Positions 9,141-29,750 of a DNA stretch of 32,000 nt are shown here, piece after piece. Position 1 is the stretch's first letter. The number at the start of each line of letters is the position of its first letter. The notes under the pieces were generated by a model. The model did no database searches and had not been told where the DNA came from. It saw only the letters and a program-made list of their open reading frames with translations. A program made the position numbers and the translations under genes. Source of the DNA: Hyperthermus butylicus DSM 5456 (GTDB taxonomy: Archaea; Thermoproteota; Thermoprotei_A; Sulfolobales; Pyrodictiaceae); NCBI RefSeq assembly GCF_000015145.1, contig NC_008818.1:1020001-1052000 (forward strand). The letters run 5' to 3'.

Positions 9141-9253
<113 letters not shown>

Positions 9254-22989: not shown

Positions 22990-23811
22990 CTATTTGTCCT
23001 TGCTGCAAAGGACTTCAAAGTCTTGGCGTGCTTGGCGCGCGAGCTGCTCTATACCGTGCAACGTGTAGGTTTCCAGTTCGCGGCACAGCAGCCAGCACAT
23101 ACTAGGGTTGTCTGGGGCTACACCAGCCTCTACAATTATGACTGTGCTGTTGGAGAGGGGGTTCTTTGGCTGCCTAGTCCTAATAACCTCCCTCGTGTTT
23201 ATGTGAGCATAAGCTGTAGCTGTGTATGCTGTTAGCCCAGAGCCTATGAGGGCTATCGTTGGCTGGGCTCGTAGCGGGTCGGTAGCCCTCGCGTAGCCCC
23301 TTACCTTACACCATCCAGTAATTGCTCTTGCAGCTCTCGCTGCTGCGTCAGGGTTGTAGGCTTGCACTAGGGATTCAAGATATCCGTCCCCATGTATTAT
23401 CGTGGCGGCGTCTGCTACGCCGAGCCCGTATGCCTGGAGGCTCCACACCTGAAGCCATGTTAGCCAGGGCGCATCACCGGGGAGTATGACTGCTCTCGCA
23501 CCAGCTTCTGCCGCGTGGCGTAGCGCGGTGTAGATGGCTACTGCTGGCCCCTCGCAGCCAGGTAGTGGGGGCTCGTCGTAGAGGCAGCTCGTCAGTTTCG
23601 CCAGGCTCATATACGTCCTGCAGCGTTCAACGCTCCTCGTCACCGCGTAGACCGCCGCTGCACCAGCCCGCCATGCCGCATCCGCCAAGCGTGCTATGGA
23701 GGCTACGCTGTCCACGAGCGCTGCAAGCTTATCCCCGCCGAAGCGGCGTCCCTCACCACCAGCGAGTATGTAGGCGTTGAAAAGAACCACGCTTGTTCCC
23801 CTAACTAGCAT
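22990..23811 (-). CDS. MobA-like NTP-transferase domain protein with ~80-aa C-terminal extension
   Basis: AYILAGGEGRRFGGDKL (the ILAGG.S.RFG.DK motif), then ..D....GCEGPAVAIYTAL.. and VILPGDAPWL, as in MobA/MocA-type nucleotidyltransferases. Its ATG lies inside the hypE stop region (ATGCTAG). Confidence 0.7.
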   Translation of the reverse strand: MLVRGTSVVLFNAYILAGGEGRRFGGDKLAALVDSVASIARLADAAWRAGAAAVYAVTRSVERCRTYMSLAKLTSCLYDEPPLPGCEGPAVAIYTALRHAAEAGARAVILPGDAPWLTWLQVWSLQAYGLGVADAATIIHGDGYLESLVQAYNPDAAARAARAITGWCKVRGYARATDPLRAQPTIALIGSGLTAYTATAYAHINTREVIRTRQPKNPLSNSTVIIVEAGVAPDNPSMCWLLCRELETYTLHGIEQLARQARQDFEVLCSKDK

Positions 23812-24878
23812 ATCCTTGGCACTAGCTCGCCGCTCGGCGGCTCGACAATCCTAAACCCGCCAGCCATAGTCTTCGCTATCACTAGGCCCCGGTGGCGCTC
23901 CTGCCTTGGCACCCTGACCTCGCCTATGATTGTTGCCTCCTCGTACCCGAGACTCCTCATAAATTCGACAACCTCTTCTGCCATTAATGGGTCCACAGCT
24001 AGCACGGCAGCACCCTCACTCGCCAAAGCCAACGGATCGACGCCAAGCAGCTCTGCGTAAGCTCTAACCTGTTCCCTGACAGGTATCTTGGCCTCATCGA
24101 TTGCTATTACCAGACCGTTCTTCTTAGCCCAGTCGTTGAGTAGCATCGCGAGACCACCCCGTGTGGGGTCGCCAGCAGCGTGTATGTAGTCGGCATACCG
24201 TTCTATGAGTGGTATCATTAGGTCTGTGAGGGGTTTAACATCGCTCTCAACCTCTAGCTTAAGCCCGATACCCTCACGGACCGAGAGTATTGCAGCACCA
24301 TGGTCGCCAAGGTAGCCAGATACCACTATCTTATCGCCATCCCGTATCCTGGTATCCACTATGGGCTTCTCCGCCACCCCGACACCGGCCATTGTTATTA
24401 TGACTCCGTCCAGGTCACCCTTTGGAACCACCTTGAAATCGCCACCTATTAGTGCAACCTTGTTAGCTGCAAGCGTTGAGGCTAGGCTCTCAAGTATCCT
24501 CGCCAGATCCTCTACCGGGAACCCCTCCTCAACGACAACAGCGTCAACCGCAGCGAGGGGCTTTGCCCCAGCCATGAGTAGGTCGTTGATAACACCGCTA
24601 GCAGCAAGTTTGCCCAGGTCGCCGCCAGGGAAGAATAGCGGTTTGACAGTGTAGGAGTCAACTGTGAATGCCAAGTATCGACCGTCGGGCAACGGTATCA
24701 ACGCCGAGTCATCCAGGACATCGAGGCCCCAGCCACCCTCAACCCTCCACAGCTCCTCGGGCACCATCGGCCTGATAAGCTTCTCAACGATCTCTCCAGT
24801 CTCCCGTCCACCACTACCATGGGCCAGTGTTATGAATTTCCAGAGAACACGCCAGCTCTTACCCCTAGCCAAGTACAT
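23805..24878 (-). CDS. hypE: hydrogenase maturation protein HypE (AIR-synthase-related fold)
   Basis: N-terminal ITLAHGSGG, PurM/AIR-synthase-like repeats, and the diagnostic C-terminal ..LVPRIC* (PRIC motif carrying the cyanated Cys). Confidence 0.92.
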   Translation of the reverse strand: MYLARGKSWRVLWKFITLAHGSGGRETGEIVEKLIRPMVPEELWRVEGGWGLDVLDDSALIPLPDGRYLAFTVDSYTVKPLFFPGGDLGKLAASGVINDLLMAGAKPLAAVDAVVVEEGFPVEDLARILESLASTLAANKVALIGGDFKVVPKGDLDGVIITMAGVGVAEKPIVDTRIRDGDKIVVSGYLGDHGAAILSVREGIGLKLEVESDVKPLTDLMIPLIERYADYIHAAGDPTRGGLAMLLNDWAKKNGLVIAIDEAKIPVREQVRAYAELLGVDPLALASEGAAVLAVDPLMAEEVVEFMRSLGYEEATIIGEVRVPRQERHRGLVIAKTMAGGFRIVEPPSGELVPRIC

Positions 24879-24975
24879 TCACCATAATAGATCTCCAGAC
24901 AGCGGGGGCGGAAAACTTTTACCACGGCTAGAAAAATTAGAAGCATAGCAGTATATGCGATGATGCTGTGTCTGT

Positions 24976-24985
24976 TGAACGTTCA
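24976..24985. promoter_or_regulatory. 10-bp palindrome TGAACGTTCA in the hypE/pdxS divergent intergenic region
   Basis: Read directly. It lies about 65-75 nt upstream of the pdxS GTG (25050) and about 100 nt upstream of the hypE ATG (24878). Any regulatory role is inferred. Confidence 0.3.
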
Positions 24986-25049
24986 GCTAGGCTCTAAGCC
25001 CTTCAGCGACATCTAGCCCCTTATCTGGGCTGAAAACCTTCCGGGGTGT

Positions 25050-26066
25050 GTGCAGGTTTTGAAGCTGATCGACTCGTATGCCGTGCTTGAGAAGATTCGA
25101 GACTTGATATACAGCCTTCTAGAGGCCCGTGATAGGGCTATGGAGAATGGGTTGGAAGTTATACCTGTTCGCACTGCTACACCACTAGTACGCTATGGCT
25201 TTATCTCCATGCTTAAAGGGGGCGTAGTAATGGATGTAACCAATGAACAGCAAGCCGAGATAGCCGAAGATGCTGGTGCGGTTGGAGTCATGGTTCTAGA
25301 CAAGCTTCCATATGATGTGAGGAAGGCGGGAGGCGTGGCTAGGACGGCTGACCTCAACGTTATACGAGCCGTTATGGAGACTATTACGATACCTGTTTCC
25401 GCCAAGTGTAGGATAGGCCACTACTGGGAGGCAAAGCTGCTTGAGGAGATAGGTGTCGACCTTATAGATGAGAGTGAAGTCCTCACACCTACTGATGAGA
25501 AGGCCCATATATGGAAGTGGGAATTCCGTGTCCCATTTGTCAACGGTGCAAGGTCTCTTCCGGAGGCTCTGAGAAGGATATGGGAAGGTGCCTCCATGAT
25601 AAGGACTAAGGGTGAAGCTGGAACCGGTAATGTGGCCGAGGCAGTTAGGCACATGAAAGCTGTAAATCGCGACATAGCAGTGCTTAGAGGCTACTATAAA
25701 GCTGGGGATATCGAAGCCATAAGGCTCTACGCGAAGAGTAATAACGTTCCATTTGAGCTAGCCTTGCTAACAGCTAGGCTTGGCAGGCTTCCAGTGGTAA
25801 ACTTTGCTGCCGGAGGGATAGCCACCCCTGCCGATGCTGCTCTAATGATGTGGCTTGGTGCAGACGGCGTCTTCGTGGGCTCAGGGATATTCAAGAGCCG
25901 TGATCCTGAACAGAGGGCACAAGCGATAGTCCTAGCGACGACATACTGGGACGACCCCGAGACTGTTGCGGAAGCCCAGTCGATGGTTTCAGAGAGGAAC
26001 GCGATGCCGGGTATAGACATTACTAGGCTCAAGCCCGAAGAGCTGTTGCAGATTAGAGGTGAGTAG
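25050..26066 (+). CDS. pdxS: pyridoxal 5'-phosphate synthase, lyase subunit PdxS
   Basis: [10 protein letters not shown]...QA.IAE.AGA..VMVL...[78 protein letters not shown]. The long crenarchaeal-type N-terminus is present. GTG start. Confidence 0.95.
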
Positions 26067-26068
26067 CC

Positions 26069-26677
26069 ATGGTTGTAGTAGGTGTTCTCGCGCTGCAGGG
26101 GGACTGGATTGAGCATATAGAGCTTCTAAGAGAAATTGAAGGCGTTGAAGCCGTACCTGTTAAGACGGAGAAGCAGCTTGAAAGCATAGATGCGCTGATT
26201 ATACCTGGCGGAGAGTCAACAACCATAGGAAGGCTCATAGAGCGTAGGGGACTCCTAGAGCCTCTACGGGACAGGATTAGGGCAGGCCTACCCGTACTTG
26301 GAACTTGTGCTGGAAGCATACTGCTAGCTAAAAAGGTTCGTGATAGGGTTGTAGGCCCCGTCGAGCAGCCCCTACTAGCTGTTATGGATATAGCTGTTCT
26401 ACGTAACGCGTTTGGCAGACAGATGAACTCCTTCGAGGCAGAAGTGCACATTGAAGGTGTAGGTACTGTTCACGCAGCCTTCATAAGAGCACCAATAATT
26501 GAGGAGACATGGGGAGAGGCTAGACCCATAGCAAAGCTGAACCATCCCCTGCTGGGGGAAGTTACAGTAGCCGCTAGGCAAAAGGCAATAATCGCTACTG
26601 TATTCCACCCAGAGATAACAGGCGACAGTAAGCTCCACAAGCTTCTAGTAGCTGCAGCCAAGGGGAGGGCCTTCTAG
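26069..26677 (+). CDS. pdxT: pyridoxal 5'-phosphate synthase, glutaminase subunit PdxT
   Basis: It starts 2 nt after the pdxS stop. Motifs: GVLALQGD..EH, LIIPGGESTT, GTCAG (catalytic Cys), FHPE. Confidence 0.95.
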   Translation: MVVVGVLALQGDWIEHIELLREIEGVEAVPVKTEKQLESIDALIIPGGESTTIGRLIERRGLLEPLRDRIRAGLPVLGTCAGSILLAKKVRDRVVGPVEQPLLAVMDIAVLRNAFGRQMNSFEAEVHIEGVGTVHAAFIRAPIIEETWGEARPIAKLNHPLLGEVTVAARQKAIIATVFHPEITGDSKLHKLLVAAAKGRAF

Positions 26678-26680
26678 ACC

Positions 26681-27841
26681 TTGACATTTAGGTTGGAGGG
26701 TATCGCAAGCAAGTGTCTACGGTGCGGCTACGAGCTTCACAATGTTGTTTTGCCCCGCTGCCCACGCTGCGGATACAACATGATAGTGGCTCTCAAGGAG
26801 TTCGAATGGAGAGTAGATCACGACACACCTAGTATGTGGCGTTACCGGCACATGCTTCCACCAGTAGAACGTGTTGTAAGCTTTAGTGAAGGCTATACCC
26901 CACTTAGGAGAGTTAAAGATAGAGTCCTCCTTAAGTTGGAGAATAGGAATCCTACAGGAAGCTATGCTGATAGAGCTTCGTCTCTTGTAGCTAGCTTCAT
27001 AGCTAGTACCCGTAATCATCCTAGCATGGTGACGATACCCTACACGGAAGACTACACTGTATCACTTTCACTCTACCTGCGTGGCATTACTGGGGTGCGT
27101 GTGGTAGCTGATCCGAGAACTGTTAATCCAAGTGACGTAATAATCCTTGACAGGCTTGGTGTCGACATAGTATTTAGCAGCGATGCAACAAACTTGAACA
27201 ACACTAGCCTACTGGACTATCTGAGCCCGCTGACGATAGAGGGACTAAAAACAATAGCGTACGAGATTGTGGAAGCTAGACCCAATTCGTCAAGAGTAAT
27301 AGTTCCTTCCGAGACGGGTCTTCTAGCATTAGCTATAGCTAAAGGCTTCTATGAGGCTAACATGGCAGGTATCGATGCAAGCTACGAGGTTGTTGCAGCT
27401 GCTGTGGAGGGTTCTGGCGAGCCCGAGCTAGCTAGATATGCGCCCATCAAGGTTAAGGTTGAGTATGTATCTTCCGAAGAGGTCGTAAAGGCGCTTGTAG
27501 AGCTCTCGCGGCGGGGACTACGAGTAAAACCCCTCTCGGCTGCAGCTTATGCTGCTGCACTCAATCTGGGTGAGGGCGTAGCTGTTATAACAAGCTCTCT
27601 AAACCCTCGACACCTGGGAATTGCTAGGAGGCCTGGCTCCCAGCTCAACAACGAGATTCGGAGAGCCCTCCAGCTACACGGCGAGGTAACAGCATATCAG
27701 CTATGGCTTGCCCTCGGGCGAACCTATAGTCTACGGGGAATATACAAAGCCCTTGAAACACTGGAAGCTGAAGGCATAGTTTGTAGCAGGTATGTAATGA
27801 AGGGTAGACGCAGAATAAAGCTGTACAAGCTGTGCACATAG
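26681..27841 (+). CDS. threonine-synthase-like (fold-type II PLP) pseudoenzyme with N-terminal zinc ribbon and C-terminal PadR-like winged helix
   Basis: TTG start 3 nt after the pdxT stop. It has CLRCG..(11)..CPRCG, MWRYRHMLP, FSEGYTPL and LKLENRNPTGSYADR, where ThrC has ..NPTGSFKDR (Lys replaced by Ala, codon GCT 26966-26968). TIPYT stands where ASTGN is expected, and PSETGLLALAIAKGF where the GNAGN phosphate loop is expected. The C-terminus VTAYQLWLALGRTYSLRGIYKALETLEAEGIVCSRYVMKGRRRIKLYKL fits the PadR-type wHTH pattern. Confidence 0.85.
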   Translation: MTFRLEGIASKCLRCGYELHNVVLPRCPRCGYNMIVALKEFEWRVDHDTPSMWRYRHMLPPVERVVSFSEGYTPLRRVKDRVLLKLENRNPTGSYADRASSLVASFIASTRNHPSMVTIPYTEDYTVSLSLYLRGITGVRVVADPRTVNPSDVIILDRLGVDIVFSSDATNLNNTSLLDYLSPLTIEGLKTIAYEIVEARPNSSRVIVPSETGLLALAIAKGFYEANMAGIDASYEVVAAAVEGSGEPELARYAPIKVKVEYVSSEEVVKALVELSRRGLRVKPLSAAAYAAALNLGEGVAVITSSLNPRHLGIARRPGSQLNNEIRRALQLHGEVTAYQLWLALGRTYSLRGIYKALETLEAEGIVCSRYVMKGRRRIKLYKLCT

Positions 27842-28445
27842 CGTCTACCTGAGTAGGATACGCTTAGCCATGAATTCGGAGGATCGCTAGCACTATAGCA
27901 TCCATTGAACGCCAACAATGCACGAGGGAATAATGCGAAAGAATGCACAGCTGTGGTGAACTCCAGGCCTTTCTAGGACAAGCTGTGACCGGGTAAGACT
28001 AGTGTGGGCTCTGACATGGAGGCCGTGGTAGTCAATGTGTTTCTTAGCCTGTGGACTAGGTGTTTGTTACGTTGAAGCCCTAAATATCGGCGGGATAGGA
28101 GGAAGTAGGGGGATCGATTACAATACTACTATGACTATAGTGGTTGGAGGCATGGAGCTGTGAGGAGTGAGCCCCGCATACAGTTGATGAGCCCTCCCTC
28201 TGGGCTATGATGGCCGCTAGGGGTGGGCCGAGCCCCAAGCAACTATGAGAAGTCCACGCATCTCTCGGGCAGGGGGTGCCTGATCCGTTGTACTATCTTC
28301 TACTTCCTCGCTGTGTATTCTTCAAAAATTGCTGGTGGGGTTTGCCTAGCTCTTCGTGAGGATGTACGGTATGTGGCCGGGGTATAGTCCACTTTCTTAA
28401 CCCTGGAGCTACCCGTGTAGTGTCTCCGGGGCGGGTGGCTGGGTC

Positions 28446-29750
28446 TTGCCTTTACCTCCTTCCCGCGACGTTCTAGGATATGTTGTTAGGCGAATGTCCA
28501 AAACTATGACGCCTGGTCTCAGCCTCGCCGTGAATGCCAACAATGATATCTATGCGCGTGGCTTCGGCTACCGTAGCCTTGAGAAGGGGTTGCCTGCCAC
28601 GCCCGACACGATATACTGTATCGCTTCCATAACAAAGCCCATTACAGCTGTTGCCGTCATGCAGCTCGTCGAGGCCGGAAAGCTCAGCCTTGACGACCCG
28701 GCCGATAAGTATCTCCCTGTAGAGTTGCGTGTGCGCGGTGAGCCGGTTCGGATATGGCACCTGCTCAGCCATACTAGCGGCATACCCGCGCTTGGCTATG
28801 CCGAGGCCCTTCTGACCGGGTACCTGGGGCTTGACAGACGCTGGCTTCCATTCTCTGAGCCCATGGCTGTGCTTGAATGGCTTGAGCGTGGAGCACGGCG
28901 CTGGGCTGTTGCGACTCCTGGTGAGAGGTTCTTCTACCTCAACGAGGGCTATGTAGCGCTTGGCGTTATCATCGAAAGAGTTTCCGGCGTCAAATTCGAG
29001 GAGTATGTGGAGAGGAACATCTTCAAGCCACTGGGCATGTCCTCGTCAACCCTTGACGCCTCTAGGGCCCAGTCCTCCCCTCTATATGCAACCCCCTACG
29101 ATGCATCCACGACACCGCCACAGCCAGCAATGATTCCCACTGGGATAACAGCTGATGGTGGAGCCTATAGCACCGTGCTAGACCTCGTAAAGTTCATGTC
29201 AATGCTCGCTAACAGGGGGAGGCTAGGTGACACCGAGATATTGTCGCCTAGCAGTGTGGAGGAGATGGAGAAACCGAGGGTCCAGCTACCGAGCCAGATA
29301 TGGGGCAACGACAGCTACGGCCTAGGCCTCATAATATACGATGGGTTCCCCGGTGGACGCCTCGTAGGCCATAGTGGTAGCGTCTACGTGCACACGGGCT
29401 TTGCCGGCTACATCCGCGGCAAGAGTGTTATTGTGAGCGTGCTGGCCAACGCTGACCCGGGCGCGACAACTATAGGCATGGCATTGGCCGCTGACGCTGC
29501 CGGGATTGACTACCATGTGCTGCCAATGGTGAGGGCTGAGGAGGCTGCTGAGAAGCTCGAGGGTATCTACCATGGCTACGAGGGCACGGTGAGGTTCCGG
29601 GTCAAAGCCCTGGGTGACGCCCTGGTCATAGAGAGTCTGAGCCGGCCGGGACTCCAGGAGGTCATGGTGCCAGAGCGCATAGAGCCGCCGGTCTACGAGT
29701 ACACCGTATACCGTGGCGGCCGGAGAATGAAGGCAGTGTTCACCCGTTGA
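28446..29750 (+). CDS. beta-lactamase/PBP-fold serine hydrolase (Pab87 / CubicO-type peptidase-like); 3' end apparently frameshifted
   Basis: SxxK nucleophile motif (CIASITKPITAVAVMQLVEAGKLSLDDP), YxN motif (FYLNEGY), HSG (GHSGS). The C-terminal ~90-aa beta-rich domain is as in Pyrococcus Pab87. After the TGA at 29748-29750, the +1 frame continues VDPETGKVELIYERYRLVKV.. to 29835. Confidence 0.88.
   Translation: MPLPPSRDVLGYVVRRMSKTMTPGLSLAVNANNDIYARGFGYRSLEKGLPATPDTIYCIASITKPITAVAVMQLVEAGKLSLDDPADKYLPVELRVRGEPVRIWHLLSHTSGIPALGYAEALLTGYLGLDRRWLPFSEPMAVLEWLERGARRWAVATPGERFFYLNEGYVALGVIIERVSGVKFEEYVERNIFKPLGMSSSTLDASRAQSSPLYATPYDASTTPPQPAMIPTGITADGGAYSTVLDLVKFMSMLANRGRLGDTEILSPSSVEEMEKPRVQLPSQIWGNDSYGLGLIIYDGFPGGRLVGHSGSVYVHTGFAGYIRGKSVIVSVLANADPGATTIGMALAADAAGIDYHVLPMVRAEEAAEKLEGIYHGYEGTVRFRVKALGDALVIESLSRPGLQEVMVPERIEPPVYEYTVYRGGRRMKAVFTR

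Follow-up and report, generated by a model that had tools for sequence, protein, structure and literature searches.

This locus raises the question of what a protein that databases name as an enzyme does at the end of an operon for vitamin B6 synthesis. The locus lies in a 32,000-nucleotide stretch of the genome of Hyperthermus butylicus DSM 5456 (hereafter the window, whose numbering is used for all coordinates given without a locus handle), where pdxS and pdxT, the genes for the two subunits of pyridoxal 5'-phosphate (PLP) synthase, are followed on the same strand by an open reading frame (ORF) of 386 residues. The ORF is a genuine gene, and its product is identical to H. butylicus WP_011822196.1 (UniProt A2BLL7), which is named 'pyridoxal-phosphate dependent enzyme' by NCBI and 'Conserved archaeal protein' by UniProt. 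Across the family the names 'pyridoxal-phosphate dependent enzyme', 'threonine synthase' and 'PLP-dependent protein subunit beta' are in use. A preliminary description of this DNA, made from the sequence alone, had proposed that the product is a pseudoenzyme fused to a DNA-binding domain and regulates B6 synthesis. This hypothesis is supported by our analysis through the conserved loss of the catalytic lysine together with a winged helix, the conserved linkage to pdxS-pdxT, and a near-invariant palindrome of 12-16 bp in the pdxS promoter. We estimate at about 0.75 the probability that the gene encodes a one-component transcription factor controlling vitamin B6 supply. The protein, called the regulator below in this predicted sense, is probably a regulator of B6 in many heat-loving archaea that has not been described before.

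To our knowledge, the regulation of vitamin B6 synthesis in archaea is not known, and no B6 riboswitch acts in these organisms. The present analysis supports a new family of one-component regulators and supplies a named protein, an exact predicted operator and a predicted regulon for archaeal B6 control. An annotation error is also corrected, since dozens of archaeal genomes name such proteins enzymes, sometimes 'threonine synthase', and such misnaming distorts metabolic reconstructions. Furthermore, the operator motif flags candidate archaeal B6 transporters, and B6 transport has been described as a poorly studied area of B6 metabolism (PMC9997740).

A threonine-synthase-like protein without the catalytic lysine

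The protein is composed of a zinc ribbon, a fold-type II (PALP) domain and a C-terminal winged helix-turn-helix (wHTH) domain (Table 1). The CxxC...CxxC ribbon and the segments MWRYRHMLP, FSEGYTPL and LKLENRNPTGS, from which the likeness to threonine synthase (ThrC) had been read, are all present in the ORF. The same zinc ribbon is found in two bona fide archaeal ThrC proteins used as outgroups (P0091 and P0099; P and L numbers denote proteins and loci of this analysis). Pfam PALP (PF00291) matches residues 67-299 with an E-value of 3.6e-25. A full-length AlphaFold (AF2) model, calculated on 66 homologues, reached a predicted local distance difference test (pLDDT) score of 93.7 and a predicted template modelling score of 0.91, and the best matches of this model in a Foldseek search of the PDB were the threonine synthases 2c2g, 2zsj, 1uim and 6nmx. 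Both the fold-type II domain and the wHTH of the preliminary description were found again by these structural methods.

The catalytic motifs were placed by HMMER alignments to solved threonine synthases. These alignments confirmed that SYADR stands where ThrC has SFKDR, so that the lysine forming the Schiff base is replaced by Ala96 (codon GCT). The replacement is not a peculiarity of H. butylicus: among 66 full-length relatives the column holds alanine in 54, serine in four, methionine in three, valine in two, isoleucine in two and threonine in one, and lysine in none. Without a lysine at this position, PLP cannot be held covalently. K85, which had been named as a possible alternative Schiff-base residue, and K190 were also considered; both are equally invariant in true ThrC outgroups and were therefore rejected as replacement lysines. 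The other catalytic loops are changed as well. The position of the ASTGN substrate/O3' loop reads PYTED, with the family consensus Y-x-x-D-F; the TIPYT given previously for this place was offset by two residues. The position of the GN(A/G)GN phosphate loop reads SETGLL, in agreement with the ETGLL reported earlier. Relative to ThrC the protein has two large deletions, and every NCBIfam threonine synthase model scores far under its cutoff, with 30.5 bits against 167.1 for TIGR00260 and 112.8 bits against 421 for NF004170, the latter matching residues 11-231 only. Judged from these alignments, the protein is a threonine-synthase paralogue predicted no longer to form the PLP internal aldimine and fused to a PadR-like wHTH, and the members of its family, in which the lysine loss is conserved throughout, are predicted to be catalytically inactive pseudoenzymes.

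The earlier statement that every PLP-contacting motif has been lost was correct for the lysine, the STGN loop and the GNAGN loop, and went too far for the rest of the pocket. The NPTGS loop, D97-R98, [ST]-G in the phosphate loop, Asp124 and Thr304 of TG.GLK are retained across the family, Thr304 in 64 of the 66 members. Thr304 presumably corresponds to the threonine contacting the pyridine nitrogen N1, and Asp124 replaces what we take to be the asparagine contacting O3'. The conservation of these residues suggests that the pocket is still under selection. A change of another kind concerns the arginine of the ThrC motif NPxR[LI]EGQKT, presumably the residue that binds the phosphate of O-phosphohomoserine, which has become threonine or serine in the regulator family. 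This argues against a ligand from the threonine pathway, and a phospho-metabolite of that pathway appears less likely as the effector.

The last ~65 residues are modelled by AF2 as three helices followed by two beta strands (pLDDT 94.5). When this domain was used alone in Foldseek, the top match was the DNA-bound PadR of B. subtilis (5x11; TM-score 0.76, root-mean-square deviation 2.2 Å, 28% identity across 70 residues), and LmrR, Rv3488 and Rv1176c came next. Sequence models gave lower scores. Pfam PadR (PF03551) scored the regulator at 15.9 bits, under the gathering threshold of 27; among 32 family members its best E-value was 1.4e-4, with weak PadR and TrmB matches in 17/32 and 16/32, respectively. 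Comparison of the C-terminal profile with PDB sequences returned marginal matches only (Fur, E = 0.036). On the other hand, hhalign related the C-terminus to the PadR domain of the sister protein P0092, which itself passes Pfam at 43.8 bits, with 95.7% probability and E = 9.8e-9. Because the Pfam match is subthreshold, the wHTH call was based on the predicted structure and on this homology; the PadR-type fold proposed beforehand is thereby borne out, while a formal PadR assignment is not. The modelled C-terminal domain is best described as a predicted wHTH resembling PadR and not as a PadR family member in the strict sense. In 66 sequences the segments TAYEIW, [ST]LRG[VI]YKAL (in the recognition helix) and GxRKVKxY are nearly invariant, and the recognition helix and wing are the best conserved parts of the wHTH family-wide.

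In a word-indexed search, full-length relatives with 34-54% identity fell into about 85 clusters, whose members belong to Desulfurococcales, Fervidicoccales, Acidilobales, Ignisphaera, Thermofilum, Thermoproteus, Conexivisphaera-like lineages and Methanomethylicia. When a profile was run exhaustively against 1.84 billion representatives, a small family emerged that comprises about 30-40 clusters at the 50% identity level, all from thermophilic Thermoproteota, and has a sharp boundary: full-length members had E-values of 1e-72 or lower, and after a gap followed proteins of 420-500 residues with E-values of 1e-58 or higher. The nearest relative by sequence search is a sister family, the NCBIfam NF004170 / PRK05638 'threonine synthase' equivalog, which consists of archaeal proteins of 435-470 residues (P0088, P0090 and P0094 exceed its cutoff) with zinc ribbon, PALP domain and C-terminal PadR wHTH in identical order. 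All five sampled sister proteins (P0086, P0088, P0090, P0092 and P0094) read NPTGSFRDR, with arginine for the catalytic lysine. In four sister-family loci (L081, L082, L089 and L090) neither pdxST nor the operator core described below was found, and the neighbours, such as ThiS and GatDE, were not conserved. The NF004170 proteins are probably regulators or other non-enzymes misnamed threonine synthase, and their regulon and ligand probably differ from those of the regulator. As regards novelty, full-text literature searches found no description of the family, of the architecture as a regulator, or of the motif, as the preliminary description had supposed, and the AmzR preprint proved unrelated; the three-domain arrangement itself is not unique, being shared with NF004170.

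In three loci (Table 1), the pseudoenzyme gene is separated by one or two genes at most from a true threonine synthase paralogue (NP[TS]GSFKDR, no wHTH). These neighbours may be a remnant of the duplication from which the regulator family arose.

Linkage to pdxS-pdxT and a palindrome in the pdxS promoter

For the analysis of gene neighbourhoods, one genome per species was scanned for the regulator, which gave 80 loci, and neighbours were identified by tblastn with PdxS and PdxT of the window. The association with PLP synthase suggested by the window held across relatives: in 43 of the 80 loci pdxS-pdxT stood immediately beside the regulator gene and on its strand, and the count was 35/55 when at least 1.8 kb of flank was required on each side. 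This linkage spans several orders, and the regulator gene lies within or beside the pdxS-pdxT operon in the majority of the lineages possessing it. The usual order is pdxS-pdxT-regulator, and regulator-pdxS-pdxT occurs in seven loci. Clustering of the 1092 neighbouring ORFs of these loci revealed no other neighbour conserved in more than 12 of the 80, and no other conserved DNA-binding gene. Sampling was also carried out from the PdxS side, where it drew only close Thermoproteota relatives; the regulator was adjacent in five of these six loci (D. mucosus, Fervidicoccaceae, Thermofilum, an Acidilobaceae metagenome-assembled genome (MAG) and a 1.35 Mb JGI contig), the exception being Vulcanisaeta.

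One MAG, Desulfurococcus sp. DRTY-7, contains two regulator-pdxST loci with opposite gene orders (L018 and L051); either the genome has two PLP synthase operons or the bin is mixed.

Alignment of pdxS upstream regions across loci revealed the palindrome TTGAACGTTCAA, which is found upstream of pdxS in 30/30 loci. Its core GAACGTTC is invariant in all 30 regions and the extended consensus is tATTGAACGTTCAAtA. A conventional inverted-repeat search of 24850-25160 with a seed of 6 missed the predicted operator and gave only a weak palindrome inside pdxS. In these 30 loci the 3' end of the palindrome lies a median of 45 nt before the pdxS start codon (range 36-72), and a TTA[AT]-rich TATA-like box starts +6 to +8 after it. 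The centre of the palindrome is ~16 bp upstream of the TATA centre, which corresponds to a position near -43 if the TATA centre is set to -27, and the site abuts the expected transcription factor B (TFB) recognition element (BRE). In the window, the copy of GAACGTTC is the only one in 32 kb; at the place of the window's TATA-like element the nearest relative (L003) has GTTAAG.

The motif is far more frequent than expected by chance in the loci, which were selected through the regulator gene: in 1.016 Mb, 25 exact palindromes and 42 with at most one mismatch were counted, compared with 0 and 2.5 in shuffled sequences. Thirty-four of the 42 sites lie before pdxS, seven before regulator or transporter genes and one inside an unrelated gene. 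The seven precede genes next to the regulator, either where pdxST is not adjacent or in addition to the site of pdxS. In the regulator-pdxS-pdxT loci the palindrome remains with pdxS and overlaps the regulator stop codon. The pdxS promoter of Vulcanisaeta sp. JCM 14467 carries the symmetric variant TTAAACGTTTAA at the usual position (L083 4947-4958); since the change affects both arms, it fits a dimeric reader. The strong conservation of the site across orders is matched on the protein side, where recognition helix and wing are nearly invariant.

The transporter genes preceded by the palindrome belong to the major facilitator superfamily (MFS), the CitMHS type and the energy-coupling factor (ECF) type (Table 1). 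The ECF S-component matches PF07155 with E = 4.9e-18, the family of PdxU and HmpT, and is the only palindrome-preceded transporter in a family with known B6 substrates. It has been reported that PdxU, HmpT and P5PA are the only characterised prokaryotic B6 transporters (PMC9997740). The palindrome-preceded transporters are putative vitamin B6 importers of archaea.

Proposed mode of action and competing explanations

In the proposed mechanism, the enzyme-derived domain would mediate dimerisation, as in threonine synthases, and the two wHTH domains of the dimer would contact the two half-sites of the extended palindrome, tATTGAAC and GTTCAAtA. The remodelled cofactor pocket, with the retained Thr304, NPTGS loop, Asp124 and [ST]-G phosphate loop, may hold a B6 vitamer non-covalently, most likely PLP. 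Ligand binding would alter the affinity for DNA, such that a shortage of B6 leads to expression of pdxS-pdxT, the regulator and the transporters. The regulator would also be autoregulated, since its gene commonly takes third place in the operon under its proposed control. Two modes are conceivable, an apo-activator released by the ligand and a ligand-dependent repressor that blocks TFB. By analogy the former seems slightly better, because the position of the site fits the rule derived from RbkR for archaeal regulators, in which a site right upstream of BRE/TATA is taken as a sign of activation (PMC5397151). In its full extent, the proposal is that this protein is the missing archaeal B6 regulator and the first transcription factor with a fold-type II PLP pseudoenzyme as its sensor; that its lysine-less pocket senses free PLP or another vitamer; that it controls pdxST, itself and MFS, CitMHS-type and PdxU-like ECF importers through tATTGAACGTTCAAtA; and that the NF004170 family forms a second set of regulators with other targets. 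We would bet on this whole set of statements at a little better than even odds.

Several observations weigh against the protein being a B6-responsive regulator of pdxS. In 20 of the 55 assessable loci (those of Acidilobus, Caldisphaera and one Pyrodictiaceae MAG among others), no pdxST and no motif were found within 8 kb. Of all sites in the set, that of H. butylicus departs most from the canonical form, with one mismatch, a spacing of 72 instead of ~45 nt and a weak TATA-like box. In Vulcanisaeta the motif variant is present without an adjacent regulator gene, and since the loci of the motif statistics were picked through the regulator, another factor might read the palindrome. The Gly-rich phosphate loop has been replaced, often with glutamate at its first position, so that PLP binding is not assured. 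Finally, the geometry of the site does not decide between activation and repression, as overlap with the BRE equally allows exclusion of TFB.

These points bear on three alternatives. The one that survives best, which we still regard as unlikely, retains a transcription factor at the pdxS palindrome and gives it an effector other than a B6 vitamer, so that B6 synthesis would be tuned to demand rather than to the B6 level; an amino acid, a PLP-amino-acid adduct, a PdxS substrate (ribose 5-phosphate or glyceraldehyde 3-phosphate) or a threonine-pathway metabolite could serve as the signal. The loss of the lysine and the Gly-rich loop in a heavily remodelled pocket would be compatible with this, as would the true ThrC paralogues one or two genes away in three loci, and the PLP-fold sensor of bacterial GabR is reportedly able to respond to an amino acid. 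Against it, the apparent regulon of pdxST and transporters, including an ECF S-component of the PdxU/HmpT family, is a classic vitamin regulon. In addition, the NPxR[LI]EG arginine presumed to bind the substrate phosphate has become threonine or serine, and Thr304, the presumed N1 contact, is kept in 64/66.

A second alternative, which we consider quite improbable, is that another factor reads the palindrome and that the protein is a partner of PLP synthase, as a PLP acceptor, chaperone or storage protein, with a winged helix used for protein contacts. The linkage to pdxST, taken alone, would suit such a partner, and the Vulcanisaeta promoter, with its motif variant and no gene copy beside it, points the same way. 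However, the motif accompanies the gene even in loci without pdxST (L004, L006, L007, L048, L056 and L022), the wHTH is nearest to DNA-bound PadR and best conserved in its recognition helix and wing, and the neighbourhood contains no further conserved DNA-binding gene; a role as covalent PLP carrier is moreover excluded by the missing lysine. The third alternative, a divergent yet active PLP enzyme such as threonine synthase, agrees with the database names and the PALP fold and is hardly credible, given that the Schiff-base position is non-lysine in 66/66 without K85 or K190 as a replacement, that the STGN and GNAGN loops are lost, and that the two large deletions and the NCBIfam scores set the protein apart from ThrC.

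Features of the locus and comparison with known systems

The features are collected in Table 1.

Table 1 Predicted and annotated features of the window and of related loci (L numbers; coordinates within the locus)
Feature	Position	Strand	Basis or remark
Predicted operator TTGAACGTTCAG	24975-24986; core GAACGTTC at 24977-24984		72 nt upstream of the pdxS start
Tentative TATA-like element CTCTAAGC	24992-24999	+	~6 nt past the palindrome; positional analogy only
pdxS, PLP synthase lyase subunit, TTG start	25059-26066	+	335 residues; Pfam SOR_SNZ E = 1.4e-91; NCBIfam NF003215 455.9 bits (cutoff 395)
pdxT, PLP synthase glutaminase subunit	26069-26677	+	202 residues; Pfam SNO E = 3.4e-52; TIGR03800 197 bits (cutoff 105.6)
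Predicted regulator gene (zinc ribbon, threonine-synthase-like pseudoenzyme, wHTH), TTG start	26681-27841	+	386 residues
N-terminal four-Cys zinc ribbon, residues 12-30 (C12, C15, C27, C30)	26714-26770	+	Cys columns invariant or nearly so in two family alignments
Fold-type II (PALP) domain without catalytic lysine, residues ~45-310	26813-27610	+	Pfam PALP, Foldseek
Ala96 at the position of the Schiff-base lysine	26966-26968 (GCT)	+	NPTGSYADR aligned to NPTGSFKDR of 1uim, 6cgq and 2zsj
C-terminal PadR-like wHTH, residues 321-384	27641-27832	+	AF2 secondary structure, Foldseek, hhalign
Recognition helix of the wHTH, SLRGIYKALETLE; wing	residues 351-363; residues 367-384		AF2 model
MFS transporter in operon with the regulator, preceded by the palindrome	L004; L006 2595-3779; L007 6743-8008
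CitMHS-type transporter, preceded by the palindrome	L002 4664-6211
Regulator gene itself, preceded by the palindrome	L022
ECF transporter operon (S, fused A-A', T) directly after the regulator, preceded by the palindrome	L048 5485-8286; L056 1582-4308
True ThrC paralogue near the pseudoenzyme	L011 10397-11476; L021 7478-8776; L054 9220-10326

The close packing of the operon was confirmed: the pdxT stop codon occupies 26675-26677, and the regulator begins 3 nt downstream of it. For pdxS, the start at GTG 25050 assumed previously, which is the mechanical start of the ORF, lies 9 nt too early. TTG 25059 was taken as the true start because of the conserved MKL[VI]DSY and the start of an NCBI protein (P0121), which has the same pdxS start; in 16 of the 18 loci listed, a start codon stands right before KL[VI]DSY. 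The ~27 residues that begin here (25059-25139) form an N-terminal extension, (M)KL[VI]DSYxFLEKLRDLIYxLLExRDR, ahead of the SOR_SNZ core, and this extension is kept in nearly all related Thermoproteota loci (L002-L068 and L083-L093). The greater AT-richness once noted for the regulator gene is negligible: its GC content is 49.3%, that of pdxS 51.4% and that of pdxT 50.9%, and the operon as a whole has less GC than the window average of 55.8%. A foreign origin of the gene, considered on account of its AT-richness, was rejected at this difference of only 1.6-2 GC points.

Divergent from pdxS lies a HypE-like gene (23805-24878, minus strand) with AIRS and AIRS_C domains and the C-terminal residues PRIC, which at its own 3' end overlaps an ORF at 22990-23811 (minus strand) by 7 nt. 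The palindrome is 97 nt upstream of the start of this gene, and in other genomes the motif tracks pdxS, not the hypE-like gene. Downstream of the regulator gene is a stretch of 604 nt (27842-28445), long for such a compact genome, in which no ORF of at least 60 residues lying wholly inside, no Rfam match and no notable repeats were found; a minus-strand ORF of 74 residues (27724-27948) overlaps its 5' end. It is followed by a gene unrelated to the regulator (28446-29750, plus strand), which encodes a beta-lactamase-fold protein with a Pab87 octamerisation domain (PF00144 and PF13969). Over the whole window Rfam found three tRNAs only, with nothing in the pdxS leader or the 604-nt gap. One of the matches, of 106 nt and 61 bits at 9148-9253 (minus strand), is absent from the ARAGORN output and is probably an intron-containing archaeal tRNA. 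A scan of 24700-28500 for sigma-70 promoters and terminators gave nothing above shuffled sequences, and such a scan is not applicable to archaea.

Among known proteins, the closest in fold is ThrC itself, both the TIGR00260 type and the archaeal zinc-ribbon type such as Vulcanisaeta P0091. The zinc ribbon, the PALP fold and the motifs EG.TP, K.E..NPTGS, DR and EG.KT are shared with it, whereas the regulator lacks the Schiff-base lysine, STGN and GNAGN, and has two deletions and an added wHTH. With PadR and LmrR it has the wHTH fold in common, but in PadR this domain is N-terminal and followed by a dimerisation helix, while in the regulator it forms the last 65 residues with nothing after it. 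The NF004170 proteins share the succession of zinc ribbon, PALP domain and PadR wHTH as well as the absence of the lysine. They differ in keeping the SDGN and GSG loops and a full-length PALP domain, in having no linkage to pdxST, and in lacking the GAACGTTC motif.

As a system, the regulator can be compared with archaeal RbkR, which joins a riboflavin kinase to a wHTH and acts on a vitamin pathway through a site immediately ahead of the promoter (PMC5397151). Both are archaeal proteins, in one case predicted, that combine a pathway-related enzyme domain with a wHTH, a palindromic operator that precedes BRE/TATA by a few nt, and a regulon of biosynthesis and transport genes. The enzyme family and the vitamin are different, RbkR is catalytically active whereas the regulator has no catalytic residue, and the sensor of the regulator is derived from an enzyme that uses the vitamin as a cofactor rather than making it. 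No homology to CTP-dependent riboflavin kinase was found, PALP being the only enzyme-like domain, so that the likeness is one of logic. Archaeal ThiR, in which a ThiN domain is joined to a DNA-binding domain, is a similar vitamin regulator.

The nearest functional parallel is bacterial PdxR, of the MocR family. MocR proteins keep the Schiff-base lysine. It has been reported that PdxR combines a sensor derived from a PLP enzyme with a winged helix, that it targets pdxST and transporters such as pdxU, that its gene adjoins its target, and that the MocR family is absent from Archaea (PMC5320631). The analogy with PdxR drawn in the preliminary description is therefore apt: by analogy the regulator would resemble PdxR in its working, having a PLP-enzyme-derived sensor, a winged helix and a gene beside pdxST, without being homologous to it. 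Both structural marks of the MocR family, an N-terminal GntR wHTH and a fold-type I domain with a PLP-binding lysine, are absent from the regulator. Where MocR has a fold-type I, aminotransferase-like sensor behind its wHTH, the regulator has a zinc ribbon and a lysine-less fold-type II sensor from threonine synthase, followed by a PadR-like wHTH. If the proposal is true, two domains of life would have turned different PLP-enzyme folds into B6 sensors by convergent evolution.

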